Origin: Nitrosomonas ureae | GTDB taxonomy: Bacteria; Pseudomonadota; Gammaproteobacteria; Burkholderiales; Nitrosomonadaceae | Assembly: GCF_001455205.1 (NCBI RefSeq) | Contig: NZ_CP013341.1 | Location: 2,369,303 to 2,401,302, forward strand | Length of the DNA stretch: 32,000 nucleotides | Direction: 5' to 3' | Shown: in pieces, positions 6,790 to 29,810 of the stretch | Position numbering within the stretch: position 1 is the stretch's first letter | Layout: each line of letters begins with the position of its first letter | Notes under the pieces: model-generated | The model's database searches: none | The model's input: the letters and a program-made list of their open reading frames with translations, nothing else | What the model was told of the DNA's origin: nothing | Position numbers and translations under genes: made by a program

Positions 6790-8124
6790 ATGGACTCAGA
6801 AATTAATACACCTTCATCCAATTTGCTGCCTGATAACGATGCGCAACGCATACTGCTGCACAATGAGGTGCATGCCCGTCCCAGTCAGCGCATCCAGTTA
6901 CCCGCCTTGGTGATCTATGTGGTTGTAATCAATGCGGGTATTACACGCGAACAGGAATGTGAACATTTGCGCCGCCTCCCCGGGCAACAGGCTCTAATGC
7001 CGGAGCAATTGCAAAATAATTTTTTACAATTGTACCTGCAAGATTATGTTTTAAGGTGGGAGCGTCATACGGAGTTTACACGCTATGCGTTATTACAACA
7101 CTTGCCTGAAAATGTCCAACTTGGTGCGATAGATCCTGAACTACTGGCTTATATTGCGTTACCGCAAGGATGGCTGGCCGGAATTCCTGGAAAAACCTTT
7201 GCGGCTATCAAATTGGCGATGATGGAGGATGAACTAAGTCAAGCGGACAAAACGCTTGAGCAAGCGCGTAACTGGTTTGGCGGTAATCGCGTGGTAGCGT
7301 CGCTGATGGGCAGAGAAGGATACTCGCTTGCAGTGACGGATTTCAGGCTGCGTCCAAGTGGTTTTGAGCGCATGCTGGTGATTATGTCGGCTGATGCATC
7401 CGAGACACGCGCCGGACGTGTTGCGCAGCGTCTGCTTGAAATTGAAACTTACCGATTAATGGCGCTAAAAGGATTACCGTTCGCTAAGCGCCTTATTCCC
7501 GAGTTAACCACTGCTGAACAGCAATTATCGGATATTACAGCGCAACTCGAGAATAAGGCCAGCTCTGACCAGGAGCTTCTCGATACGCTGATCTTTCTGG
7601 CTGCACGCATTGAGCGTGCCACGGTTGAACATGGCTATCGTTTTGCGGCGACACAAGCTTATAACAAACTGGTGATACAACGTATTAGCGAACTTAGAGA
7701 AAAAGCCATACCAGGTACTCCAACCATTGGGGAATTTATGCAACGACGGCTTTCTCCAGCGATAGCGACAGTGGATGCGACGGCACAACGTATGAGCTAT
7801 CTTTCCGCACGCGTATCACGAGCCAGTGCTTTGCTGCGCACGCGCGTTGATATCCAGACGGAAACCCAGAATCAACAGTTATTGGAAAAACTTACCCGTG
7901 GCCAGGAATTACAATTGCGCTTACAAAGTACAGTGGAAGGCTTATCGATTGCAGCGATTTCGTATTACGTCATCAGTCTGTTGTTGTATTTGGCGAAGGC
8001 AGGCAAAGCGGCCGGCTTGCCAATACAACCCGAGTTGCTGACCGGATTGATGATTCCTGTTGTCGTGTGGTTGGTCTGGCGTGCCACACGCCGCATTCAC
8101 GATAAATTTTTTAAGCTACCGTAG
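6790..8124 (+). CDS. DUF3422-like membrane-anchored protein
   Basis: ORF 6745-8124; the ATG at 6790 (MDSEINT) is the preferred start. LHNEVHARP motif near the N-terminus, a long helical middle and two C-terminal TM helices (LSIAAISYYVISLLLYLA; LMIPVVVWLVWRA). The family assignment is from memory of the HARP motif. Confidence 0.65.
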   Translation: MDSEINTPSSNLLPDNDAQRILLHNEVHARPSQRIQLPALVIYVVVINAGITREQECEHLRRLPGQQALMPEQLQNNFLQLYLQDYVLRWERHTEFTRYALLQHLPENVQLGAIDPELLAYIALPQGWLAGIPGKTFAAIKLAMMEDELSQADKTLEQARNWFGGNRVVASLMGREGYSLAVTDFRLRPSGFERMLVIMSADASETRAGRVAQRLLEIETYRLMALKGLPFAKRLIPELTTAEQQLSDITAQLENKASSDQELLDTLIFLAARIERATVEHGYRFAATQAYNKLVIQRISELREKAIPGTPTIGEFMQRRLSPAIATVDATAQRMSYLSARVSRASALLRTRVDIQTETQNQQLLEKLTRGQELQLRLQSTVEGLSIAAISYYVISLLLYLAKAGKAAGLPIQPELLTGLMIPVVVWLVWRATRRIHDKFFKLP

Positions 8125-8464
8125 ATAGCGTCGTCACAAGACATTCACCTAGAGAGCGATACCTCGGATTTGAATAGCGGTAAGGAAGGATGCTGAAGTT
8201 TTAGCATAGTGCGTGCCAATAGCGACGGCTTCTGAAAATAGGTGGTTGTATTCATACCGGGGGTACAAAAGCCCCAATCAATATGTAGCGGAAACAGAAA
8301 TATTGAAAAAAGTCGCTTAAGTGGGTTGTCCGCTTTTACTTGATGAGGTCATACTCATTTGATTTTTAGTTTATTTTTTATTTTTATAAGATGGATTCAA
8401 AAGGCTTGCTCTTGCTATATCCCATCCGGTAGCCTTCGTTTGTCACGTGTAGTCACAAATATAT

Positions 8465-8665
8465 TTATTCATTTGATGTTTCTTCTATAAACTCAATCTT
8501 ATAATTGTCTTGATTATCATCATTCACAACACCGTTAGCTTTAGCCTTATTCCAAGCATCTGTAATGTAGTCTTCTTTATTTAACATATCATCTGCCAGG
8601 CTCAGGGAGAATTGAGCTTTTACTTCTCCTGAAGATTTTTCAATAATCTGTACTTTTTTTAACAT
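8465..8665 (-). CDS. P-type small protein, paralog P3 (unassigned family)
   Basis: Tracked ORF 8465-8764. The internal ATG at 8665 (MLKKVQIIEKSSGE..) has a GGAAG RBS and aligns with paralogs P1 and P2: KxxIxxK .. KEDYxxxAWxxAxxxG[LV]V .. NYxxxF. Confidence 0.55.
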   Translation of the reverse strand: MLKKVQIIEKSSGEVKAQFSLSLADDMLNKEDYITDAWNKAKANGVVNDDNQDNYKIEFIEETSNE

Positions 8666-8717
8666 ACAAACACTTCCATAAATTGATATTCTGCTTACAA
8701 ATATCTCGAAATTAACA

Positions 8718-8869
8718 TCATAAAATCCCGTCGGGTACATTTTTTCCAGGTGGGGCACCTTCACGTATTAGATTTTCATAGGAAAGATCTTCCGGTGATA
8801 TTCTGTTAGGTGATGGTGGTTCCACACAAGGTGAATGATCATTTGGATTAATGTCAGTATTTTTTTCAT
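8718..8869 (-). CDS. A-type small acidic/proline-rich protein, paralog A3; the long frame needs a 1-nt shift in an A7 tract
   Basis: ATG 8869 lies 7 nt after GGAG and is followed by A7 (T-run 8860-8866 on the + strand). The zero frame gives 33 aa (stop 8768). With one extra A it reads MKKNTDINPNDHSPCVEPPSPNRISPEDLSYENLIREGAPPGKNVPDGIL (stop 8718). That product shares SPxxISxxDL[ST]xE..VPD with the 70-aa protein at 9611-9823. Confidence 0.3.
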
Positions 8870-8880
8870 AATCTTACTCC

Positions 8881-9174
8881 TTAATGTTCCGTGCCTGATG
8901 GAGGGCGGGGTGTTGAATTATTTCTTCCAGAGTCTTTGTTTATCTTTTCTGGTGGACTACTGGCATTTGAATCTTTCTTATCTATAGAATCTGTCTCGCA
9001 TGGATCTCCGCCATCTATTCTTTCATGATAATGACCGGATTCTAGTTTTTCGCATTTCTGCTTCTCATATAAACGATCTTTACTGTCATAGGATTGTGCT
9101 AAAACATGAGTTCCTGGAAACATAAATAAAGCAAAAACCAAGAAAATGATGGTTAAATCATTGACATAACGCAT
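8881..9174 (-). CDS. S-type small exported protein, paralog S3
   Basis: ATG 9174 (MRYVNDLTIIFLVFALFMFPGTHVLAQ|S) follows AGGAG. It has a signal-peptide-like N-terminus and a hydrophilic low-complexity mature part. It aligns with S1 (10282-10593). Confidence 0.6.
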   Translation of the reverse strand: MRYVNDLTIIFLVFALFMFPGTHVLAQSYDSKDRLYEKQKCEKLESGHYHERIDGGDPCETDSIDKKDSNASSPPEKINKDSGRNNSTPRPPSGTEH

Positions 9175-9292
9175 TTGAGCTCTCCTGAAAAGCAAAGATT
9201 GTCACTATGCAAAATTTCAATGGGAAGGTCTGTGCGAAAACCAACATTAGAAAATATAAACCGCTGAAGGGGGAAGTTAGAACAATGAATAA

Positions 9293-9499
9293 TTACCTGT
9301 CATATTGAGAGGTATTATCATCAACAAATTTCATAGAATAATTTGATCGATTGGATTCATCTACTAACCCGTTATCAACTGCATGATCCCAAGCTTCTGC
9401 GAAAAAATCTTCCTTTAAATCATTTTCAACCCGTTCAATTGGATATTCCGCAATTATTTGCTGTGATAATTTATCAGTAATTCTGATTTTATTAATTAT
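9293..9499 (-). pseudogene. P-type small protein, paralog P2; the initiator position is ATA (non-canonical start or inactivated copy)
   Basis: Not in the ORF track. The reverse strand reads (I)INKIRITDKLSQQIIAEYPIERVENDLKEDFFAEAWDHAVDNGLVDESNRSNYSMKFVDDNTSQYDR*. A GGAG lies 7 nt upstream of ATA 9499-9497, which aligns with the ATG of P1 and P3. The open frame has no ATG/GTG/TTG (upstream stop at 9518-9520). Confidence 0.45.
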
Positions 9500-9610
9500 A
9501 AAAAATCTCCACGCAGTTTAAGAAATGAATATTGGAAAATTTTTATAGCTGTGTATGGGCGTAACGTAACTCATCTAATAAAAAATAGCGGACGGAATTT
9601 CCGGTAGCAA

Positions 9611-9823
9611 TTATTCCACGGGATTATTTTTAATGTGACTCTCATCATCCGGAACAATCTTTTTTTGGAGCGCTTCTTCTGGTGTTAAATCTATCGTTGA
9701 GATGCCTGCTGGCGATTCCTCGTCGTCAGGATGCTCCTGTAATTCATCATAATCATTGTCGGAAAATTGCAAATTTTCGAATTTATACTTCTTTTTTAAT
9801 ATTGGAGGAGTGGACTGTGTCAT
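9611..9823 (-). CDS. A-type small acidic protein, paralog A2
   Basis: 70 aa, strongly acidic, no signal peptide (..DEESPAGISTIDLTPEEALQKKIVPDD..). AAGGA lies upstream. It sits immediately upstream of P2, in the same relative position as A3 to P3. Confidence 0.5.
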   Translation of the reverse strand: MTQSTPPILKKKYKFENLQFSDNDYDELQEHPDDEESPAGISTIDLTPEEALQKKIVPDDESHIKNNPVE

Positions 9824-9938
9824 AAATAACTATCCTTACATTAATAAATAGAATGGTAGAGAATCTGCGCTGTTTCCAATCTATAGGCAAACGATCGAGG
9901 GATTGGAAAAAAAACCAGGTGGAGCCGGTTTGTCATAG

Positions 9939-10187
9939 TTATTTTGATTCTGTAGGATCGATCTTTTCAGGGTCAATGTCCTCTTGAATTTCTACTCCGG
10001 CATCGTTCTTATCGTAATTTTGTTGATTAGTAACGCTATCTTTTTTAATGGGATGAATATCCTGCGCGGGTTTTGGTTTTAGCGAATCATCAACATTTTT
10101 CTGAATCTGAGATTCTTCCACGGCAAAGGCAGATACGCTAATAAATAAAAGCGCACGTATTAAACCATTAGCTAATAAATTAATCAT
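9939..10187 (-). CDS. Small exported hydrophilic protein (S2)
   Basis: 82 aa. Signal-peptide-like MINLLANGLIRALLFISVSAFA|VEE followed by a K/D/E/Q-rich low-complexity region; AAGGAA RBS. Confidence 0.5.
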   Translation of the reverse strand: MINLLANGLIRALLFISVSAFAVEESQIQKNVDDSLKPKPAQDIHPIKKDSVTNQQNYDKNDAGVEIQEDIDPEKIDPTESK

Positions 10188-10281
10188 GAGATGATTCCTT
10201 TGTTCTAAATAAATTCAAAATTCACTTGAAAAATATCTGCCTCTGCAATTTCGTTCTAATTACTAATCAAATGATAAGTAA

Positions 10282-10593
10282 TTAATAACCTGCTTCGGAG
10301 GGTACATCAGGATTGTGTAAGGGTGATTCAGAATTTTTTGCCGGCGGATGCACAATTCCATCCCCCCGTGGTACATTCTTGTCAAAATTTCCCTTGTTTT
10401 CTTCGGTTCTACCTCTTAAATCCGCATCTTCCTTTAGTTGATTAGTTCTGCCAGATTCAAATTTCCGAACATTTTGAGGTTCGTAAGTTTCTTTGCGATC
10501 AGTATCTGACTCTGACAATACATCAGTGCTTGGAAAAATGAATACCCCAAAAATTAGAACGAACCAAAATAGCTTGTTGTCATTATTCATCAT
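10282..10593 (-). CDS. S-type small exported protein, paralog S1
   Basis: ATG 10593 lies 5 nt after AAGGAG. MMNNDNKLFWFVLIFGVFIFPSTDVLSES.. aligns with S3 through the signal peptide and about 45 mature residues (..YEPQNVRKFESG vs ..YEKQKCEKLESG). Confidence 0.6.
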   Translation of the reverse strand: MMNNDNKLFWFVLIFGVFIFPSTDVLSESDTDRKETYEPQNVRKFESGRTNQLKEDADLRGRTEENKGNFDKNVPRGDGIVHPPAKNSESPLHNPDVPSEAGY

Positions 10594-10706
10594 CAATTCT
10601 CCTTATGAAAAATGAAATACCTTACTCGTGTTTATAATTAATTAAATCTGTCTTGGTGCGACCATAAACAGTAGAACCCTTCAAAATGAAGAGCCCTTTA
10701 AGAAGT

Positions 10707-10784
10707 CACTTTTTATGAGGTGGGGCTTTGCTTTTCTCTGAATCTTTTTTCTTGTCATTAGAACCAGCAGTAAATTTATTCATT
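10707..10784 (-). CDS. 25-aa lysine-rich peptide (MNKFTAGSNDKKKDSEKSKAPPHKK)
   Basis: ATG 10784 lies 6 nt after GGAG. It is too short for independent support. Confidence 0.25.
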
Positions 10785-11147
10785 TTTAACTCCTTGCATG
10801 ATGAAATGAAAGTTAAGAATAAATTTTATTAATGACACTTTCTGTGCGGCCTGTCACATAAAGAACTAAATTTCATGTCTTAGTCCGAGGATGAGTAATC
10901 TCAGATTCAGTAAGCGGCGGTGGAGTATCGAGGGGATCTTGTTTTGGTGGAACTTTCAGAGGCTGTTCAGGGAGCACGAATGGTGGAGGCGCAGGCGGTA
11001 TCGAAGATTCTGGATTAATTTGAGCAAGAAAATGATTCGAAATATACAAGTGCCTAGCCAGATATCCTCTAATTAGAAACTTTATTCTCGTTGAATGTTG
11101 TCGAAGGGGGATCGGCGCGTCTTCTCACACAATAAGAATAAGGCAAT

Positions 11148-11168
11148 AAAAAACCCGCCGAAGCGGGC
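11148..11168 (-). terminator. Rho-independent terminator downstream of the PRC-barrel gene
   Basis: The minus-strand RNA reads GCCCGC-UUCG-GCGGG followed by U6: a GC stem, a UUCG tetraloop and a U-tract, 46 nt after the stop at 11214. Confidence 0.8.
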
Positions 11169-11213
11169 TATATATTCCTTGTCATGCTCTGATTTAGAAG
11201 CGAGATCGTTTTA

Positions 11214-11621
11214 TTATCTCTTATCAGCGCCATAATAAGAATTTACAGTATGTTGCCACGAAGAATCAGCCATATTAGGCCAATGATCTTTATCGAATCC
11301 GGGAGCAGATTCTAGCTTTTCTTTATTAGCGTCCAGTGTAAAGCGTTTATTGGCGGTGTCCAATTTTAATGCACTCCATGGTACGGCAAAAAGTTTATCT
11401 CCCATTCCTAGAAAACCGCCGAATGAAAGTACTGCGTAACTTACTTCCCCCGTATTCATATCCAGCATGATCTCTTTGATATCACCCAAGTCTTCGTCCT
11501 GCAAATTATAAACATCATTGCCGAGCAGGGTGTTAGCTCCCATCAATTGGGGCCCTGGCCCACCAGAATTTGTATTTTTATACATACCTAATTCATCTTT
11601 ATCTATATAGCTCATATTCAT
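11214..11621 (-). CDS. PRC-barrel domain protein
   Basis: 135 aa. GEVSYAVLSFGGFLGMGDKLFAVPWSAL is a PRC-barrel signature. The second ATG at 11615 has better spacing to GGAG. Confidence 0.75.
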   Translation of the reverse strand: MNMSYIDKDELGMYKNTNSGGPGPQLMGANTLLGNDVYNLQDEDLGDIKEIMLDMNTGEVSYAVLSFGGFLGMGDKLFAVPWSALKLDTANKRFTLDANKEKLESAPGFDKDHWPNMADSSWQHTVNSYYGADKR

Positions 11622-11757
11622 CTCCGTTTAGTAATTGAATGAAACGGAATTATGAAGATAAAGAAAAAAACTATCTGTACGGCATCCCACAATATGTATA
11701 TGAAAGTGATAAAATCAGCCCCAGGGGGTAGAGGGGAAAATTTAATTATTCTCTGGA

Positions 11758-11943
11758 CTATCTAAAAACAAACTTCATTTCATAATCTGTTTCGTTTGTG
11801 GTTTCGACTAACCCTTCACTAACTGCATTGGCCCACGCTTTTGCGAAATAATCTTGTTTTGTAGAGCTATCTCTTAAATTAATTAAATACTGCGCTATGC
11901 AGTTGTGTGTTTCTTTTTCTAAAATTTGTATTTTTCTTTGCAT
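11758..11943 (-). CDS. P-type small protein, paralog P1
   Basis: ATG 11943 (MQRKIQILEKETHNCIAQYLINLRDSSTKQDYFAKAWANAVSEGLVETTNETDYEMKFVFR). It aligns with P2 and P3. Confidence 0.55.
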   Translation of the reverse strand: MQRKIQILEKETHNCIAQYLINLRDSSTKQDYFAKAWANAVSEGLVETTNETDYEMKFVFR

Positions 11944-12281
11944 AAGCAGTCTCTTCAAATTTTATTTATATAGTAGATTTGATGAATTTTCATAATGTAA
12001 CTCCTTCTCAACCAAAAAAAGATTCCACGATCTATTAGCAGCAATTTATACTCAGCTCGCAATCGAACAATGATAATGCACGAAGAGGAAATTTTGCATG
12101 AACGGCCAAGAAAGACTGAGTAAATTATGTTTCTGAATTGGGATGAGTAACAACTGCCTTCCAATAGTATTGGAATACTTTATTCAGAATAAGAAAATCT
12201 GTCTGCCAAGGCTTGAGTTTGTTTTCCTATTCTGATTTGCGCTAGATCGGTCAGCAATGGATTTCGGATGAGATTCTGGAT

Positions 12282-12794
12282 TTACGTTTTTTTAGAAGAA
12301 GCCTTATTTCTTGAATCTTTATGATCTTCTTTAAAGTGAATGACTTCTTTTGCCATTTCAGATCTATCAATTTCAGATTTTGTAAGCTTAGGAAACATGT
12401 TTTTTTCCTCTTCTTTAACATGGTGCTCAATATACTCACGCAATACAGTTACCTTTGCATCATAATGACTATCTTCAGCACTCATCGATTGAAGCTGGGA
12501 AATAAGTTCTTTTGCGCCAGCATGCTCCACATCTGCCTCGTCCATTAAATCATCGTCATCGATTGTTTCTCGTGCAGTGGGATAAACAATTGATTCTTCA
12601 GCTAAGGCATGTAAAGTCAATTCTTCGCAAATCTGCTTAACAATTTTTTCTTTTTTACTAGTGTTATTACTTTTATCTTTTAATTCTTCGAATTCATCAA
12701 ATAAATCCTTAACCTTAGCATGATCAGCTTTTAATAGCTTAATAATATCATCAGCTTCTGATTTACTTGAGTTTGTGTTTTTGTGTTGAGACAT
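12282..12794 (-). CDS. Hemerythrin-like (HHE cation-binding) domain protein
   Basis: ATG 12794 (MSQHK..). Spaced His/Glu helices: LLKADHAKVKDLFDEFE, LHALAEESIVYP, EHAGAKELISQL, EHHVKEEEKNMFP. Confidence 0.75.
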   Translation of the reverse strand: MSQHKNTNSSKSEADDIIKLLKADHAKVKDLFDEFEELKDKSNNTSKKEKIVKQICEELTLHALAEESIVYPTARETIDDDDLMDEADVEHAGAKELISQLQSMSAEDSHYDAKVTVLREYIEHHVKEEEKNMFPKLTKSEIDRSEMAKEVIHFKEDHKDSRNKASSKKT

Positions 12795-13057
12795 GATTTT
12801 ATTCCAATTGAAAGAAGGAATAATCATGATCTCTCTAAAGGAATATAAAGTCGGTGTGTTACCGCACTTTTAGAATAGTTCAAATTGCTCGGATTATAGA
12901 TAACTCAAGCAGAAGGATTGGAAGGATACGCCAGCGGGCGCTTTCAGGTTGAAGAATCGACGAGCAAGCCAAGAGACCCCAAAGTGTTGACGCCGGTCGA
13001 AAATTGACCAGGTAATCCACGTATTCTGCTTATTTCTTAAGCAGAGGTTAAGAAGAG

Positions 13058-13331
13058 GTGATTACCATGGTTATGTATGCAAAGATACGACGGATGTTTT
13101 ATCGTGAACATCTAACGATAAGCGAGATTCAACGCCGCACAAGTTTGTCACGGAGTACGATCAAGAAATGGTTAAGGGCATCCGGCGACAGTGCGGTCAA
13201 GTACTATAGGCTGAAGATTCCTGGCAAATTAACGCCATTTGAGCCCAAACTGTTGTTGGCATTGGAGGCTGACGTACATCGCCCCAAGAAAGACCGACGT
13301 ACTGCACTCATGTTGTTTGACGACATACAGT
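13058..13331 (+). pseudogene. IS21-family IstA transposase, N-terminal ~90-aa fragment
   Basis: YAKIRRMFYREHLTISEIQRRTSLSRSTIKKWL..KKDRRTALMLFDDIQ is the IstA HTH N-terminus. Similarity stops near 13331, where the sequence becomes the antisense of another IS gene. Confidence 0.7.
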
Positions 13332-13480
13332 GCCTCAGTACGCAGGTTCCGGACTTCATCCGAGGTTGCTTCACGAACAATATCTCCAGCCAATCGCTTC
13401 TTCCCAGCTTCCAGAAATCCCTTCGACCAGCGGTAATAGATATTCGTATTGATACCTTCTGGAGTTGGAGTTGCCCCCAT
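13332..13480 (-). pseudogene. IS3-like OrfA (HTH transposase) internal fragment, inverted
   Basis: GINTNIYYRWSKGFLEAGKKRLAGDIVREATSDEVRNLRTEAL resembles the IS3-family OrfA core. It is cut on both sides (about 13331 and 13480). Confidence 0.5.
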
Positions 13481-13519
13481 TGAACGGACACATTATGTTC
13501 TGTTTAAAGGAGAAGAAAT

Positions 13520-13840
13520 ATGACGCAAAACTACAAACCTGCTTACCCACCTGAGTTACGCCAACAGATGGTGGAATTGGTAGCATTAGGCAAATGCCCC
13601 AAGCAATTATCCAAGGAATTTGGCTGCCACTACACGTCGATACAAACCTGGTGCCGGGCAGCAGGTGTACCAATTAGATCAAACCAGGCAATTGCTTTGG
13701 CTGTAACATCGAGTGTTGCTTCCTTGAGTGCCAACGAACGGCAGGAGCTGCTGGAATTGCGTAAGAAGCTCAAGCGTGTGGAGATAGAGCGCGACATATT
13801 GGCAATGGCTACGGCCTGGTTTGCAAACAACAAAGATTGA
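13520..13840 (+). CDS. IS3-family transposase OrfA
   Basis: 106 aa. HTH (PKQLSKEFGCHYTSIQTWCR) plus the leucine-zipper-like tail ELRKKLKRVEIERDILAMATAWFA. It overlaps orfB. Confidence 0.8.
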   Translation: MTQNYKPAYPPELRQQMVELVALGKCPKQLSKEFGCHYTSIQTWCRAAGVPIRSNQAIALAVTSSVASLSANERQELLELRKKLKRVEIERDILAMATAWFANNKD

Positions 13841-14424
13841 CTGGGAAGGTGTACCAACTCATCAAGGCAAACCGGGCCCAATTTCCGGCTCGTGTTCTAT
13901 GCGAGACACTCGGTGTATCGCACAGCGGTTACTATGACTGGGCAAAACGCACACCCAGCCGACGGGCCATTACCAACTGTCGATTGATCGAGCAGATCAT
14001 GGCCATATACCGTACCAGCGATTGTACGTATGGCCGCCCCCGCATTACCGTTGAATTAGCCGATCGTGGAGTCAGGGTCAATCATAAGCGCGTAGGCAGA
14101 TTGATGCGTGAAGCTGGAATTAAAGGGGTGAGTCGCAGGCGAGGCTTTGTGATCACGACTCATCGGAATAAGCGTGACCGCCCTGCACCGGATTTAGTGC
14201 AACGCCATTTCAAGGCAACTAGCATCAACCAACTATGGGTTGCGGACATGACTTACATTCCTACCTGGGCAGGGTTCCTGTACCTGGCCGTGGTCATCGA
14301 TGTATTCAGCCGTAAGGTAGTGGGCTGGTCTTTCGGTGAAACCATGACAGCAAGCCTGGTGATCAGTGCGTTGAACATGGCGTTAATCACTCGTAAACCG
14401 GGCAAAGTGATTCACCATAGCGAT
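13837..14424 (+). pseudogene. IS3-family OrfB segment 1 (N-terminus to ..VIHHSD)
   Basis: ..YGRPRITVELADRGVRVNHKRVGRLMREAGI..QLWVADMTYIPT..LYLAVVIDVFSRKVVGW..HHSD. The frame is then broken by foreign DNA at 14425. Confidence 0.8.
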
Positions 14425-15100
14425 AGTAAGAATACTTGCACCAGATTTCAATAATGATTTGACTCAACCATTGAGTGAGCAATTATTGGAGCTCTGGTAC
14501 CGTAGGAGTTGCCAAGTTTCCTGACCCTCACTCAGATCGACCATCATATGTGTCATTCCTCGGATCTAAATGGGTATCGCGATATATCAACTGCATACAA
14601 AATTGCATTGAAATCGCTTGCACGACGATATTTGGAGTTACATGACGAAATTGCAGATTTGGATGTGATGATTTCCGTCATTGTTGATGAATTAGCCCCC
14701 GAACTGATTACAGGCAAAGCCATTGGATATGAATCTGCGGCACAGCTACTCATTACCATAGGAGACAATCCGGAACGCTTAAAGTCTGAAGCTAGCTTTG
14801 CGGCGTTGTGTGGTGTCAATCCAATTCCTGCCTCATCAGGCAAGGTCAATAGGCACAGGTTAAATCGTGGGGGTGATAGAGCGGCTAACAGCGCGCTGCA
14901 TATTATTGCTATAGGACGATTGCGGATAGACGCCAGAACTAAAGAGTATGTTGAAAAGCGTTTAACTCAGGGTCACACTAAACTTGAAGCACTTCGTTGC
15001 CTTAAACGTTATATCGCAAGAGAGGTATATTACACTTTGAGAAAGAGAAATAATTTAATCAATAGCGCACAAATTGCAGCTTGACATTTAGAAGGGCATC
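14425..15100 (+). mobile_element. IS110-family remnant inserted in IS3 orfB
   Basis: This 676-bp insert sits exactly between the codons HHSD and RGSQY of orfB. It carries only the C-terminal half of an IS110-type transposase. Confidence 0.65.
14590..15084 (+). pseudogene. IS110-family transposase, C-terminal domain only
   Basis: Within ORF 14509-15084: LARRYLELHDEIADLD..GYESAAQLLITIGDNPERLKSEASFAALCGVNPIPASSGKVNRHRLNRGGDRAANSALH..RCLKRYIAREVY. The N-terminal DEDD catalytic domain is absent. Confidence 0.75.
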
Positions 15101-15295
15101 CGCGGCAGCCAATACTGTGCACATGATTACCAGAATGTATTGCAACAATTTGGCATGATTGCTTCCATGAGTCGTAAGGGTGATTGCTATGATAATGCAC
15201 CGATGGAAAGCTTCTGGGGGATACTTAAAACCGAGCTGGTGCATCATAGAAGATTCAAAACACGGCAACAAGCCATCCAGGAGATTACCGAATAT
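15101..15295 (+). pseudogene. IS3-family OrfB segment 2
   Basis: RGSQYCAHDYQNVLQQFGMIASMSRKGDCYDNAPMESFWGILKTELVHH..QEITEY. It ends at the IS4 insertion. Confidence 0.8.
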
Positions 15296-15315
15296 CAGTA
15301 GTGTCCGGCAATTTA
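15287..15315. repeat. 9-bp target-site duplication (ACCGAATAT, 15287-15295) plus the left 20-bp IR of the IS4-family element (15296-15315)
   Basis: cagtagtgtccggcaattta is the exact reverse complement of 16597-16616. accgaatat recurs at 16617-16625. Confidence 0.9.
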
Positions 15316-16616
15316 GTTGAATAGATTCAGTTGGTTGTTGTTATGGTGAGTGATCATTTGCATCTCAGTATTTTTAAGTAATTGATCTAGGTTAGTTTTC
15401 TCGAAAAGAGTTAGGCTCAGGATTTGTAGGATTGTGTAAAGTGAAGTCTCGGTATTGAGTCGCTTTTTTACGATGGCAACCAAGACATAAACCGAGATGG
15501 CAATCCATATCTGTGTCTTGACTGCGTTTTCAGTGGTTCCGTAGAATTGCTTGATACGAAGATGTTGTTTGATCCACTTGAAGAATAGTTCGATCTGCCA
15601 GCGACAACGATAAAGCTGAGCGATGGTCAGTGCAGGTAAATCGAAGTTGTTGGTTAGAAATACCAGATGCTTGTCGTGTTCGGCATCATAGAACTTAATA
15701 CGTCGTAGGTGCTGCGGGTAATCCTTGCTGGCCTTCGTAGCGGTCAATGCAATGGTCTGATCGCATCGCAGTCCCGTGGATTTGTCCACTGAGTGAGAGT
15801 AGACACGGCGAAAAAGGAGACTGGATTTAGCGCGCGTTACAAAAAATGCTTGTGCTTGATGCATAGTGAACCAGCGAGCAAAGTCGGTAAAGCCCCGATC
15901 CATGATGTAAAAGCTGCCAGCTTCGGGGATCAGGAAATCGAGCACATTGACTTCGTGCATCTTGCCGTCGCTGATATGGATGAACGTTGGAATGTTGCCG
16001 CGTAGATCAAGCAGTGTATGCATCTTGACGGCAGCTTTGGTCTGACGAAAGCGCGCCCATGGAAAGACGCTCAAACACAGATCGATGGTCGTGGTATCGA
16101 GTGCATAGACTGTCTGTTCCAACTCCACCGCTAAGCTATCGCTGGAGTAAAGCTTTCTGGCGATCTGGATCAAGCTCATCGCGAAATCCATGTAGATGCG
16201 ACAATCGCGCTGCTCGTTGGCATCGGCCAACGTACTCTTGGCGATGTTGCCTCGTATGCCCAAGTGATAAAGCTTAGCTTGGTGAGCGCGCAGACAGGTT
16301 TCGATGTTGCGCAGACTCTCGCGGTAAGTCAGCTGCGCGAAAGCCATGCAAAGAAATTGATCGAGATGCGAAAGAGTCTTGGTGGGATATTTGGAAGGGT
16401 AACGCTGTACACAGCGGCGGAATGTGTGAAGGGGCAAGTAATCCATGAGTTGTGCGAATACCAATTTGCCTGAATGCATGATAAGAAGCCACGTAGGGAA
16501 ATCTCCAGTTTCGCAAAAAATTCACTTTCAAATCGGTGACACCCCCAAACATACCATTTCATTCTACAGATCAATCTGTTATACAATCATCTTGGGTAAA
16601 TTGCCGGACACTACTG
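15296..16616 (-). mobile_element. Intact IS4-family insertion sequence (1321 bp)
   Basis: Perfect 20-bp terminal IRs and a 9-bp TSD. Removing the element and one TSD copy restores the IS3 orfB frame (..QEITEYIEIFYNRQ..). Confidence 0.9.
15313..16479 (-). CDS. IS4-family DDE transposase (N-terminal DUF4372-like region)
   Basis: 388 aa. MHSGKLVFAQLMDYLPLHTFRRCV.., ALDTTTIDL, FYIMDRGFTDF and YRCRWQIELFFKWIKQHL are typical of the family. Confidence 0.9.
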   Translation of the reverse strand: MHSGKLVFAQLMDYLPLHTFRRCVQRYPSKYPTKTLSHLDQFLCMAFAQLTYRESLRNIETCLRAHQAKLYHLGIRGNIAKSTLADANEQRDCRIYMDFAMSLIQIARKLYSSDSLAVELEQTVYALDTTTIDLCLSVFPWARFRQTKAAVKMHTLLDLRGNIPTFIHISDGKMHEVNVLDFLIPEAGSFYIMDRGFTDFARWFTMHQAQAFFVTRAKSSLLFRRVYSHSVDKSTGLRCDQTIALTATKASKDYPQHLRRIKFYDAEHDKHLVFLTNNFDLPALTIAQLYRCRWQIELFFKWIKQHLRIKQFYGTTENAVKTQIWIAISVYVLVAIVKKRLNTETSLYTILQILSLTLFEKTNLDQLLKNTEMQMITHHNNNQLNLFN

Positions 16617-16625
16617 ACCGAATAT
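16597..16625. repeat. Right 20-bp IR of the IS4-family element (16597-16616) plus the second TSD copy (16617-16625)
   Basis: taaattgccggacactactg followed by accgaatat. Confidence 0.9.
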
Positions 16626-16727
16626 ATAGAAATATTCTATAACCGGCAGAGAAAACAGAAAAAGCTGGATTATTTTTCACCAGCACAATTTACGCAGCAA
16701 TACTATGCAAATTTGCTTGTTGCTTAA
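16617..16727 (+). pseudogene. IS3-family OrfB segment 3 (C-terminus)
   Basis: (TEY)IEIFYNRQRKQKKLDYFSPAQFTQQYYANLLVA* is a typical IS3 OrfB tail. Confidence 0.8.
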
Positions 16728-16758
16728 ACCGATGGACTCCATTTTTGACAGCACATAC

Positions 16759-16771
16759 ATGGACGCCCACT
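16759..16771. repeat. Subterminal IR of the IS110-family element (3' side)
   Basis: atggacgcccact is the reverse complement of 18159-18171. Confidence 0.7.
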
Positions 16772-17031
16772 TTCTGTCAAGCTTTCAGTCAATGATTTTG
16801 AGCAGGTAAAGATTGCTGCCATACATCCGGACTTTGTATGAGGCGCATTGCCCCTGCCCCTGATGGAATTTGCTGAGTAGCGCCTTATCACCTCAGCGTG
16901 CTCTATGCACTGTGTGCTGTTTAGGTTTAGCTACTCACGGTCTGACCAGTTTCGCCATCATTGTCATGATTGCCCGTGCAATCGGTTGAAATTTTTCTCC
17001 TTAAATCTGCTGCAGTGCTATCAATAAATTT

Positions 17032-18087
17032 CTATGCAACACCATAATCATGCTCGGCAGCAACTGATGTCGTAGCGCGATTATGGTGGAATGTTGTGCC
17101 TTGGGCGAGCAACGCCCAGATAATACGAGCATTTTTATTCGCTAGTGCAACAGCAGCGATATTCTTGTTGCGTCGAGCTATCAGTTTACGCAACCAGCTT
17201 TCTGGTTCTTCCTTATTTTCAGCAAAACGGATGACTGCTCTTGCTCCGTGAATCAGCAAAGTGCGCAGATAAGTGTCGCCACGTTTACTGATGCCGAGTA
17301 ATATCTGCTTGCCACCACTGGAGCACTGTTTTGGCACCAATCCAAACCATGCCGAAAGTTGCTTGCCGTTCTTGAACTCTGTGGCATTTCCAACTGTTGC
17401 AACAATGGCGCTCGCCGTAATCGGGCCAATACCGGGAATAGCTTCCAATCTTTGACTGGCTTCGTTCTCCTTGTGCCACAGCTTGATCTGCAATTCCAAC
17501 TCTTCTATTTGTCGACTTAGTTGTTTGAGATGATCATTCAACTGTTTCAGTAAATGACGCATTGATCCTGGTAAATCGTTTCCAGCATCTTCCAGAATAT
17601 CCGGCACCCGATTGATAATCGAACGGATCCCTTGTGGGATAACAATACCAAATTCAGAAAGCAGGCCGCGTATCTGATTTGCCTGTGCGGTTCTGGCTTT
17701 GACGAAACCTTGCCTGGCACGATGCACTGACAAAATGGCTTGTTGCTCAATATTCTTGATCGATACAAAACGCATGTTGGGTCGGCTTACCGCTTCGCAG
17801 ATCGCTTCCGCATCTGCCATATCATGCTTGTTGGTCTTGACGTAGGGTTTGACAAATTGGGGTGACATGAGCTTGACGGTGTGCCCAAATTCGCACAGCT
17901 TTCTCGCCCAATGGTGTGAACTACCGCAGGCTTCCATCCCAATCAGGCAAGGCTCCAGATTGGCAAAAAACTTTGACATCTCGCTACGGCGCAACTGCTT
18001 GCGCAGCAACGCCTTACCATACATATCCACGCCATGAATCTGAAATACTTCTTTTGCCAAATCAATGCCTATCGTTGTAATCTTCAT
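17032..18087 (-). CDS. IS110-family (DEDD) transposase/recombinase
   Basis: 351 aa. MKITTIGIDLAKEVFQIHGVD..CLIGMEACGSSHHWARKL..NKHDMADAEAICEA plus the C-terminal IPGIGPITASAIVATVGN..FGLVPKQCSSGGK..GISKRGDTYLR. GGAG lies 8 nt upstream. Confidence 0.9.
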   Translation of the reverse strand: MKITTIGIDLAKEVFQIHGVDMYGKALLRKQLRRSEMSKFFANLEPCLIGMEACGSSHHWARKLCEFGHTVKLMSPQFVKPYVKTNKHDMADAEAICEAVSRPNMRFVSIKNIEQQAILSVHRARQGFVKARTAQANQIRGLLSEFGIVIPQGIRSIINRVPDILEDAGNDLPGSMRHLLKQLNDHLKQLSRQIEELELQIKLWHKENEASQRLEAIPGIGPITASAIVATVGNATEFKNGKQLSAWFGLVPKQCSSGGKQILLGISKRGDTYLRTLLIHGARAVIRFAENKEEPESWLRKLIARRNKNIAAVALANKNARIIWALLAQGTTFHHNRATTSVAAEHDYGVA

Positions 18088-20880: not shown

Positions 20881-21035
20881 TCGCAAGCGCAAGGATACTT
20901 CAGCGCTATACCTTACTTTGCTTTGCAAACCTTAAACCTGGCAGGATTCGGGCAGGGCTTGGGCATCATCATGGGCGCAATTACATTTCGCATGACCTTC
21001 GTACTGCTGCCTAAACTGGGAGTGATACCGAAATG
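20881..21035 (+). pseudogene. pVI-like (DUF2523) C-terminal remnant (copy B)
   Basis: Matches copy C from 28398 (..QGYFSAIPYFALQTLNLAGFGQGLGIIMGAITFRMTFVLLPKLGVIPK). It is fused to the pIII remnant by the deletion. Confidence 0.75.
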
Positions 21036-21996
21036 GTCATCATACTGACGGCAACGCCTGGCTGCGGAAAAACTAATCACGCCGTATGGAGCCACATTAA
21101 ACCGGCGGTGGAAAATGAACGAATAGTTTACGTTTGCGGCATTCCGGATTTAAAGCTGATGCACATCAAATTATTAATTGCCAAGCTTAACACCTGGGCG
21201 GAACGCACACCCATAGACCCCATTGATCCCGAAGGTAAGCAAAAGCTCAACAATATAACCGAAGGCAGTCTCATTGTAGTGGATGAAGCCGCTTATCCGT
21301 GGCCGGCCATCGATCTGAAAGATCCTCCAGAGTACATCAAGTATCTTTCCCAGCATAGAAAGCACGGGCTTGATTTCCTGGTAATCACGCAATCGCCCAA
21401 GTTCGTGCATCCGTTCGTACTGGAAAACGCAGATAGGCATATTCACCTGAGCCAGGAATGGTCAGGTAATAAGCAATATGAATGGTCGGAATACTGCGAA
21501 CCCGAAACTGAAAACCAACCGGGCCAATGCAGTCAAGAAGCCGTACAAACTGGAAAAGAAAGCGTTCGAATTGTATTACTCAGCCAGCCTGCATGTAGAA
21601 AAACCGAAACGCGCGATTCCCAAAATGGTTTATGCGGCAATTTTCCTATTATTCGCAGCTCCGGCAATGGCCATGATCACTTATGGGCGCATTACTGACC
21701 GGTTAGCCGATCCGAATTGCAGAAAATAAAGAAACTGAAAAATTAGCCGAAGTAATCGAAACACAAAATGATGCAGTCGTGCCGGTATCTGCAACCCTCA
21801 CCAATCAACCCATCAGAGAATCACTTTCCATGTTATCTGAAAATGTTGACTGGTCACAGTTGCCGCTTGTGTTTCAAGCAAAGCTAACTGCGTTTGCTAC
21901 GGTCATAAAGCGCAACGCTTGAATATTGTTCCGGATACCTGCAATGCTGCCATTAATTATGGTTGGATTGTGACTAACAAGATTTAGAGGAAAACA
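21033..21996 (+). pseudogene. Zot/pI-like assembly ATPase, frameshifted (copy B)
   Basis: The first ~165 aa are nearly identical to copy C (GTPGCGKTNHAVW..LIVVDEAAYPW). A 2-nt gap relative to C near 21497 shifts the frame; ORF 21478-21729 carries the continuation. The 3' part is degenerate but ends ..NCVCYGHKAQRLNIVPDTCNAAINYGWIVTNKI*. Confidence 0.8.
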
Positions 21997-24697: not shown

Positions 24698-25709
24698 ATG
24701 ATGAATCTGATTCCTGTGTTTGTCGACTATCTGACCATCCGTCAAGTGCATGACGGCGGCAAGCTGCCAGTTATTAACGGGGGCAGAGTGCTGAGAATAG
24801 ATTCCGATGGTGAGATTGAATACGCCGTGGACACTCGGCAAGGTTTGGAAGGTAGTTTTGATAGTCGGGTGGAAGTGCGTTGCGATGGTCATCAGGTCGA
24901 ATTCTCCGGCAATATATCCCGCTATGGGCGACAAGATAATTTATTTGGTTTCACTTTTGCCGACAGCATCGAGCGGATCAATGATCTGCTCAAAAGTTTA
25001 GGATTGCCACCTTTTACCGCTGGCAAATTGTATAAGTTCGCTGATTCGGGCTGGACGTGGACAGGTGCCAGAGTCAGCCGGATAGACATAACCTGTAATT
25101 ATGTCACCGGCTCCATGATCGACTCCGAAGCATTACTCCGCAATATGGCAGGTCACCACATTGGCCGACAAAAGGGCTCATTATCCGTCAATGGCGCTAC
25201 CGTTGAATATGGACGAGGTTCCAAATACGTTTACGGCAAACTCTACTGCAAAACCACTGAACTAAAAAAACACCGCTCTAAAAAAATCAGGCCAGCATGT
25301 TACCGATGAAGTCATCGACTTCTGCCAACACTTAGGCGTAATACGAGAAGAGTTTACTCTGAAATCACGCTTTCTTCTACAAAATGGCTTGGCCTATCTA
25401 GGGGCTATCACTGATGCATTATTAATCGAGGTTTATATGAACAGAACCCAATTACAACGACTGGAAAACGTCAAATACGAAAATTTCAATGATCTGCCGC
25501 CATGGTTGCGAGCAACTTACGTGAGCTGGAAATATGGTTATCCGATTGATCTTAAACGTTCTGCTTTTTATAACCACAGAAAAGCTTTACTTGCTTACGG
25601 CATTGATATCTCCATCCCCAACAACGTGCAAACCATGCCAATCAAAGTAAAAACAATCGAACTGGCTGCGTTCACCGCGCCTGATTGGTACATCAAGAAA
25701 TACGCATAA
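24698..25709 (+). pseudogene. Filamentous-phage gene II/X-type (Phage_CRI-like) rolling-circle replication initiator, split by a +1 frame change in an A7 tract
   Basis: ORF 24698-25309 (VFVDYLTIRQVHDGGKLPVINGGRVLRIDSDGEIEY..SRIDITCNY..) continues in frame 0 from 25266 to 25709 (..SGQHVTDEVIDFCQHLGVIREEFTLKSRF..). The frames switch within 25264-25286, which holds two A7 runs. The joined length of about 335 aa fits the family. Confidence 0.75.
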
Positions 25710-29594: not shown

Positions 29595-29810
29595 ATGAAA
29601 GCTGCGATTTTAATCCGGAGTAAACTAAATGATCAATTTGTCGCTTGTTATCCTTACTCAACTATTCCAGAAAAGGAAAGAAGTACCGTACATAACGATT
29701 TTAATTTCTGTTGGGAAATAGCTTTAAACAATAAGCTTGTGAAAGCTGGAACTGAGGAGCAACATTATTTTTCTTTTGTTGATCTGGATGATCCGAACTA
29801 TAAAAATTAA
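29595..29810 (+). CDS. Hypothetical 71-aa protein in the post-zot slot of phage copy C
   Basis: Tracked ORF 29580-29810; ATG at 29595 (MKAAILIRSKL..). Unrelated to the slot ORFs of copies A and B. Confidence 0.4.
   Translation: MKAAILIRSKLNDQFVACYPYSTIPEKERSTVHNDFNFCWEIALNNKLVKAGTEEQHYFSFVDLDDPNYKN

Follow-up and report, generated by a model that had tools for sequence, protein, structure and literature searches.

An AT-rich island of small-protein genes in Nitrosomonas ureae and its possible role in stress survival or dormancy

What is the role of tiny orphan genes that follow one another in a recurring order within a few kilobases of a bacterial chromosome? This question is raised by a stretch of 32,000 nucleotides from Nitrosomonas ureae (RefSeq assembly GCF_001455205.1, contig NZ_CP013341.1, positions 2,369,303 to 2,401,302), called here the window, whose own numbering is used below. 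An earlier note, made from the letters alone, described on its minus strand an AT-rich island with an iterated module of three genes, encoding a small exported protein (S), a small acidic protein (A) and a protein of about 65 residues (P), none of which belonged to a family that could be named. The island covers about 8.3-12.9 kb of the window and is indeed AT-rich, since its GC content is 0.35-0.39 at about 8000-13000 against 0.45-0.50 (about 0.48) in the flanks. In strain Nm10, its genes bear the locus tags ATY38_10855 (P3) to ATY38_10890 (a hemerythrin gene), and the annotation names the PRC-barrel and hemerythrin genes, the remaining ones being given as hypothetical proteins. With a probability of about 0.5, we read this locus as an island of small proteins for stress or dormancy, peculiar to Nitrosomonas, in which S would be exported and hydrophilin-like while A and P would be its cytoplasmic partners. 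The whole basis of this reading lies in composition, predicted disorder and gene neighbourhoods.

Three new families under purifying selection

Profile searches with S, A and P gave no match above noise in Pfam, NCBIfam, PHROGs, PADLOC or the PDB sequences, in agreement with the first impression that no known family is involved. S, A and P are three new uncharacterised families, found in a type of locus, the island of small stress proteins, that is already familiar. Nothing relevant was found in the literature on Nitrosomonas with hemerythrin and PRC-barrel.

The open reading frames (ORFs) S1, S2, A2, S3 and P3 lie on the minus strand where they had been placed. The ratios of nonsynonymous to synonymous substitution rates (dN/dS, Nei-Gojobori method) between the window and a relative about 80% identical (Logan contig L017) are 0.23 for S1, 0.15 for S2, 0.44 for A2, 0.15 for S3 and 0.23 for P3. 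Such values (0.15-0.44) imply that the five are protein-coding genes under purifying selection, a selection whose absence had been named as a possible objection to the module. A2 is the least constrained of them.

S proteins

The genes S1 (10282-10593), S2 (9939-10187) and S3 (8881-9174), all on the minus strand, encode small proteins that are predicted to be exported. S2 is acidic. S3, a more distant paralog, has two cysteines that are conserved, and its orthologs are P0128 and P0129. S1 has homologs in 26 clusters, which make up the S family and whose named members come exclusively from Nitrosomonas. The likeness of S1 to S3 that had been noticed is genuine (BLASTP E=4e-11, 35% identity across 57 residues); the signal peptide accounts for most of it, and a shuffle test restricted to the mature parts gives p=0.09. 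Both mature proteins carry the motif YExQxxxKxESG at an equal offset from the predicted cleavage site.

In the family alignment, the N-terminus is variable, always hydrophobic, and ends in V/A-x-S/A right before E/Q-S. These features suggest Sec-type signal peptides, with cleavage predicted after VLS, AFA and VLA in S1-S3, and the S proteins would thus be released to the periplasm. The mature region that follows reads ETYEKQKVQKLE..GRYQQLKKDADLRGRTEENKGNFDxxVPRGDGV.YPPAK and contains a core of ~50 residues that is near-invariant in about 20 clusters; in S1, this core is ETYExQxVxKxESGR..QLKxDADLRGRTEENKGNFDxNVPRGDG..PPAK. The AlphaFold2 (AF2) model of S1 is of low confidence, helical at residues 4-21 and disordered in the remainder, with a predicted local distance difference test score (pLDDT) of 58.

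Hydrophilins were reportedly defined by Garay-Arroyo et al. in 2000 by a glycine content above 6% and a hydrophilicity index above 1. Mature S1 (Gly 8.1%, grand average of hydropathy -1.61) and mature S3 (Gly 7.1%, -1.81) both have a hydrophilin composition under this test (Gly >6%, hydrophilicity index >1).

No pairwise similarity was detected between S2 and either S1 or S3. Despite this, S2 is, judging from fusion proteins, drawn from the same pool of modules as S1. Thus, the N. supralitoralis protein P0130 (L025:1260-1640) consists of the S1 core followed by the S2 C-terminus, and in P0148-P0150 an S2-type N-terminus (..SQTQNKVDD..) is joined to the S1 core.

Some other observations concern individual S genes. 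S3 contains a His/Cys-rich stretch, ESGHYHERIDGGDPCE, that could bind metal. Elsewhere, the gene at L027:9146-9484 (minus strand), near an S-family gene and together with CsbD and a catalase-like gene, encodes a protein homologous to the small metal-binding protein (SMBP, PF16785). In strain L001, S1 is interrupted by an insertion sequence (IS).

P proteins

P3 (8465-8665, minus strand) encodes an intact protein of 66 residues that is identical across six NCBI assemblies. Its resemblance to P2 (9293-9512, minus strand) had been correctly seen (E=2e-13). A third paralog, P1 (11758-11943, minus strand), had been overlooked; its product of 61 residues matches P3 with a BLASTP E-value of 2e-13 and is identical to P0001, an N. 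ureae hypothetical protein. A weak fourth P-like ORF (MKAAILIRSKLNDQFVACYPYS...FNFCWEIALNNKLV...YFSFVD), also overlooked, lies on the plus strand at 29595-29810, in a separate AT-rich island, and is found with the P profile at E=2e-5 (hmmsearch).

An exhaustive profile search of 1.84 billion representatives gives a P family of 102 proteins at E<=1e-3, nearly all of 55-85 residues. Its consensus is M..KVQIIEK.S...IAEY.I.L.......DYF.EAW..AV..GLV....R..Y.I, in which a tryptophan and a tyrosine (W38, Y55) are invariant. The family is acidic, with a net charge averaging -6, and all its named members come from Nitrosomonas (N. ureae, N. supralitoralis and Nitrosomonas sp. Nm166). Whereas the mature S region is predicted to be disordered, P3 is confidently modelled by AF2 as a beta-beta-alpha-alpha-beta fold (pLDDT 82). 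Foldseek comparison of this model with the PDB gave nothing significant (best E=0.55), and comparison with BFVD gave weak matches only, to unnamed small phage proteins (best E 0.02). A phage or plasmid origin of P was considered and rejected: PHROGs gave no match, the IMG/VR scan returned only a false positive inside a tape-measure protein, and tblastn against phage and plasmid collections retrieved no P relatives.

In the window strain, P2 is inactivated at its 5' end. The gene model first proposed (9499-9293) begins at an ATA codon; the real start, a GTG at 9512-9510, is out of frame because of a run of six T (T6) in place of five (T5). The gene is intact, with 72 codons for amino acids, in four assemblies (L006, L018-L020), and L001 and L002 carry a separate deletion of one nucleotide inside it. 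The decay of P2 is thus due to two independent mutations.

A proteins and other acidic proline-rich products

A2 (9611-9823, minus strand) encodes an acidic, proline-rich protein of 70 residues with a net charge of -10. A3 (8718-8870, minus strand) is an A-family frame that has no start codon in the window strain, where TAT stands in place of the TTG found in L001, L002 and L006. The A3 gene that had been drawn at 8869-8718 (152 nt) joined an ATG in one frame to the A-family body in another. This ATG at 8869 opens an alternative-frame ORF of 33 codons (MKKILTLIQMIIHLVWNHHHLTEYHRKIFPMKI; 8768-8869, minus strand), and the AAGGAG ribosome-binding site located 5' of A3 now serves this ORF; a start-codon switch has taken place. 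Within N. ureae, nine nucleotide differences in A3 lead to eight amino-acid changes, which indicates that its constraint is relaxed in this species.

The proposed kinship of A2 and A3 has no direct BLASTP match behind it, and the Smith-Waterman shuffle test gives p=0.003. It holds through an intermediate: an ORF from another Nitrosomonas genome, located upstream of an S homolog (L021:3-332; ...KHPDDEGPPEDIPYEEVIPEDAPPRKDVPDEF...), matches both A2 (3.5e-9) and A3 (1.2e-4), and the A family is therefore real. A2 is also tied to the family through L025:1971-2189. The A proteins are probably cytoplasmic and disordered.

An acidic proline-rich ORF is found immediately 5' of P at six of about 13 P loci. 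In three cases, this ORF is A2, A3 or the A gene of L025. At other P loci, the upstream ORF belongs to an unrelated family ("PDYIPP...IPPEQEPP...RDPEIPVP") or to a family of 61-residue proteins. Because P often lies directly downstream of an acidic proline-rich ORF, it may bind or act with the product of this ORF.

The unrelated family deserves a separate description. It is rich in proline and glutamate, comprises proteins of 63-75 residues (L008:363-587, L013:5473-5700, L023:3408-3599), is conserved between species (E about 1e-20) and shows the motif ..PDYIPP..P.P..IPPEQEPP...RIP..RDPEIPVP. The next gene downstream of each of its genes is a P gene or an S gene. Its members have many PP motifs, and elongation factor P (EF-P) would be needed for their translation.

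Gene order, duplication and decay

The S-A-P order is present in seven N. ureae assemblies. In the window, the locus looks like PRC-[S1-S2-A2-P2]-[S3-A3-P3], judging from the sequence. In N. supralitoralis (L025), a PRC-barrel gene, an S gene (the S1+S2 fusion), an A gene (A2-type) and a P gene (P3-type) follow one another in a single orientation. The claim that a whole S-A-P unit had been duplicated in order therefore stands as far as the order is concerned, which is repeated here and recurs as PRC-S-A-P in N. supralitoralis; both P2 and A3 are defective in the window strain. Co-occurrence of the three genes in other genomes is only partly seen. The relative about 80% identical (L017) has the order S1-S2-A2-S3-P'-P3, without P2 and with a P of another subfamily at the expected place of A3. 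Nitrosomonas sp. Nm166 (L010) shows PRC-S-S-P-S, and two contigs (L021, L028) have A and S without P. Furthermore, five or more loci have a P gene with neither S nor A beside it, and S is also found without P.

At the nucleotide level, the only likeness between the units is a stretch of 94 nt that is 70% identical in P1 and P2; the duplications are therefore old, and the P copies are distinct subfamilies. In the window strain, each unit has one member (P2 or A3) without a start codon. The redundancy that followed the duplication is in the course of being lost, and S1, S2, S3, A2, P1 and P3 would remain as the working set. The functional loss of P2 and A3 leads to the same effective pair, A2-type and P3-type, as in N. 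supralitoralis.

Spacers are not as short as had been described: those of S1, S2, A2, P2 and S3 measure about 95-118 nt, and only S3-A3-P3 is tightly packed. Terminator-like hairpins followed by a T-run are found on the minus strand 3' of the PRC-barrel gene (11152-11169) and 3' of S2 (9912-9931). These hairpins and the spacers of ~100 nt indicate that most genes of the island are separate transcription units.

Neighbourhoods of the homologs

In independent Nitrosomonas genomes, the genes that lie at most a few kb from an S or P homolog were collected. Three Nitrosomonas species, among them N. supralitoralis and Nitrosomonas sp. Nm166, have a PRC-barrel gene ahead of their S/A/P genes. KGG-repeat genes are also found near S or P homologs, as are genes for CsbD, DUF883 (ElaB/YqjD type), DUF2383, ChaB, DUF308 (HdeD type), SMBP and a catalase-like protein. 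One locus combines DUF6496 with DUF1264, another hemerythrin, DUF6496, Ku and LigD, and yet another Ku and LigD. These families are typical of the general-stress and stationary-phase regulons of bacteria.

P genes also occur in or beside DNA-repair genes (L013:3909-6930, L015:6001-10526, L007:6001-8245). The arrangements are a UmuC-like IMS gene ... P-SRAP, P-Ku-LigD, and P beside a Cho-type nuclease gene with an S24 (LexA-like) peptidase gene.

A stress or dormancy island and its alternatives

The island would have arisen by an old tandem duplication of a three-gene cassette, downstream of the hemerythrin gene, P1 and the PRC-barrel gene, and its genes would mostly work as separate transcription units, not as one machine. 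Once freed from their signal peptides, the S proteins would be highly hydrophilic, disordered periplasmic proteins of ~70 residues, which may act as protectants of the hydrophilin type or of the late embryogenesis abundant (LEA) type, or as binding partners, in starvation, drying or osmotic stress. In the cytoplasm, the A proteins would be acidic, proline-rich and probably disordered, and the P proteins would be small acidic folded domains that may bind the product of the adjacent acidic proline-rich ORF or act with it. Among the layouts that the earlier note had proposed, that of a stress/hydrophilin module fits best with the composition of S1 and S3 and with the stress-gene neighbours of the homologs.

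The comparison with known systems gives partial likenesses. Like the hydrophilins and LEA-like proteins (KGG-repeat YciG/GsiB, CsbD), the S proteins are small, hydrophilic, rich in glycine and charged residues and predicted to be disordered, and their homologs are encoded beside KGG and CsbD genes. However, they have no sequence relationship with these proteins, and their signal peptides point to a periplasmic action. Furthermore, the S core is conserved far beyond the need of a function that depends on composition only, and S2 is glycine-poor. OsmY, the YhcN/BhsA family and ElaB/YqjD are small periplasmic or membrane proteins of the RpoS/general-stress response of Enterobacteria. Like the S proteins as predicted, they are small, exported or associated with the envelope, clustered with stress genes and in many cases restricted to one lineage. 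One S homolog has a DUF883 (ElaB-type) gene as its neighbour; however, S has no homology to proteins of the OsmY/BhsA/ElaB type, and no common promoter motif was found. As for the PRC-barrel (PF05239) stress proteins, they are tied to S, A and P by position only, none of the three being a PRC-barrel protein.

Several points weigh against a role in stress or dormancy. With 1.7% glycine, S2 falls below the hydrophilin threshold for this residue. The S core, its RGD tripeptide included, is so well conserved that specific binding seems likelier than generic shielding, and the location of P genes beside DNA-repair genes could indicate another role. A search for a shared promoter motif in 53 upstream regions of island genes found gapped-dyad counts no better than in shuffled sequences and reflecting AT-richness only; a scan for sigma-70-like promoters also stayed at chance level. 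The putative stress role leans on the neighbourhoods of individual loci. Finally, none of the products of ATY38_10855 to ATY38_10890 appears in the supplementary tables examined of the log-phase proteome of N. ureae Nm10, in which the adjacent DUF3422 protein ATY38_10850 is present (Zorz et al. 2018, PMC5960693). Such an absence is expected for proteins that are tiny or made under stress only, and it is no positive evidence.

It is unlikely, although the DNA-repair neighbourhoods invite the idea, that P is a small acidic regulator or a DNA or protein mimic of the DNA-damage/repair response, S and A being merely co-resident in variable islands. P homologs are found in a UmuC-like (IMS) ... P-SRAP string, beside an SRAP fragment, beside a LexA-like S24 peptidase with a Cho-type nuclease, and upstream of Ku-LigD; the family is strongly acidic, and P stands at DNA-repair loci without S or A. 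However, the Foldseek search of the PDB (best E=0.55) brought up no known DNA mimic or regulator that its model resembles, the P and LexA/Cho genes are convergent and form no operon, and both the window and L025 have P placed after S and A. Moreover, Ku-LigD is counted among the genes of stationary phase and general stress as well, so that this explanation overlaps with that of a stress island. Quite unlikely too is a true S-A-P unit, specific to ammonia-oxidising Nitrosomonas, in which the exported, disordered S (core ...DADLRGRTEENKGNFDxxVPRGDG..PPAK) would serve in the periplasm as a specific ligand, signal or protectant, its production or activity being coupled to A and P in the cytoplasm; in a variant of this proposal, the polyproline-rich A/R ORFs would be EF-P-dependent translational gates for the downstream P. 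If such a unit existed, the P fold would be that of a new small-domain family.

A dedicated three-part system, in which S would be an exported effector and A and P its cytoplasmic immunity or chaperone partners, had been put forward at the outset. The repeated S-A-P order in the window, the conserved PRC-S-A-P of N. supralitoralis, the tight packing of S3-A3-P3 and the presence of a predicted signal peptide on S but not on A or P all speak for it, and effector-immunity and toxin-antitoxin systems likewise have an exported component followed by small cytoplasmic ones, in iterated sets. It is nevertheless very unlikely. The searches brought up no domain of a toxin, immunity or antitoxin protein, nor, in S, any enzyme domain. 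The mature part of S is predicted to be disordered, PADLOC gives no match (a defence system was rejected on this same result), and no secretion apparatus was found nearby. The components are independent of each other at many loci, with P standing without S or A and S without P; their order is rearranged in the relative about 80% identical, and terminators separate the genes. Besides, P2 and A3 have been lost while their S partners are intact, the opposite of what is expected of an essential immunity gene. A similarly low probability is given to a horizontally acquired, AT-rich and largely silent island of orphan ORFs that drift to loss without important function. Low GC, the adjoining IS elements and remnants of filamentous phage, the IS within S1 of one strain, the inactivated P2 and A3, a degenerate ORF of 58 codons (see below) and the absence of these proteins from the log-phase proteome tables would suit it, but dN/dS is 0.15-0.23 for S1, S2, S3 and P3, the S core is near-invariant in about 20 clusters, PRC-S-A-P is kept between species, 102 diverged P representatives retain W38 and Y55, and no relatives are found in phage or plasmid collections. 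Lastly, a chromosomal integron has reportedly been described in N. europaea, and the ORFs were also considered as an array of integron cassettes, or as clustered attC sites lacking an integrase (CALIN). Small ORFs in the same orientation with spacers of ~100 nt, and P copies gained or lost between close relatives, recall such an array; yet a comparison of the spacers showed no attC-like sites in common, whether repeated or inverted, Rfam gives no match at the gathering threshold or at a relaxed E-value, and no integrase-type gene (intI) was seen beyond IS transposases among the larger ORFs of the window. An integron can hardly be the explanation, and it was rejected.

Other features of the island and its flanks

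At the upstream end of the island, a hemerythrin (HHE) domain protein is encoded on the minus strand at 12282-12827 (Pfam PF01814, 3e-18), its start in RefSeq being probably the ATG at 12794. With the NCBIfam model "PA2171 family ribosome-binding persister protein", whose cutoff is 190, the protein reaches 71 bits; judged on these scores, it is related to this family but lies outside it. The PRC-barrel domain protein (11214-11615, minus strand; Pfam PF05239, 9e-17) has 133 residues.

Between this gene and S1, two other small ORFs are found on the minus strand. The first, proline-rich and of 58 codons (10873-11049), is uninterrupted in the window strain and in one other only; four further N. 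ureae assemblies show a stop codon inside it, and L025 keeps just a remnant of it. It is probably the degenerate remnant of a proline-rich small gene. The second (10706-10783) would encode a highly basic peptide of 25 residues (MNKFTAGSNDKKKDSEKSKAPPHKK), with a strong AAGGAG ribosome-binding site and a hairpin 3' of the ORF; it is kept among N. ureae strains and in L017 and is broken in N. supralitoralis.

A 4.7-kb region of the locus matches GCA_900105875.1 at 100% identity, and its identity to the other N. ureae assemblies is 95.6-99.6%. One flank consists of core genes (DUF3422, aminotransferase, beta-CASP hydrolase, P-II). The other is rich in mobile elements, with IS110, IS3 and IS4-type transposases and filamentous-phage remnants with Zot and Phage_CRI domains. 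IS elements or fragments at 13058-18087 adjoin the island (HTH_21/rve, Transposase_20 of the IS110 family, and DUF4372 with DDE_Tnp_1). Farther on, the ORFs at 21033-21698 and 24698-25309 (plus strand) encode Zot-like and Phage_CRI (G2P replication protein) domains; from these domains, they are what remains of a filamentous prophage of the inovirus type, or a copy of one.

Significance for Nitrosomonas

The locus offers a clear example of a duplicated cassette of small genes that sheds its redundancy by complementary loss. As far as named sequences show, its three families are confined to Nitrosomonas, and all of them recur among general-stress genes and genes of non-homologous end joining (NHEJ). 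Ammonia oxidisers endure long periods of starvation and drying, and to our knowledge little is known of how they do so. S, A and P would be candidate factors of dormancy or envelope protection in this key genus of the nitrogen cycle, and their practical value is that of a target list for transcriptomics, proteomics and biochemistry.

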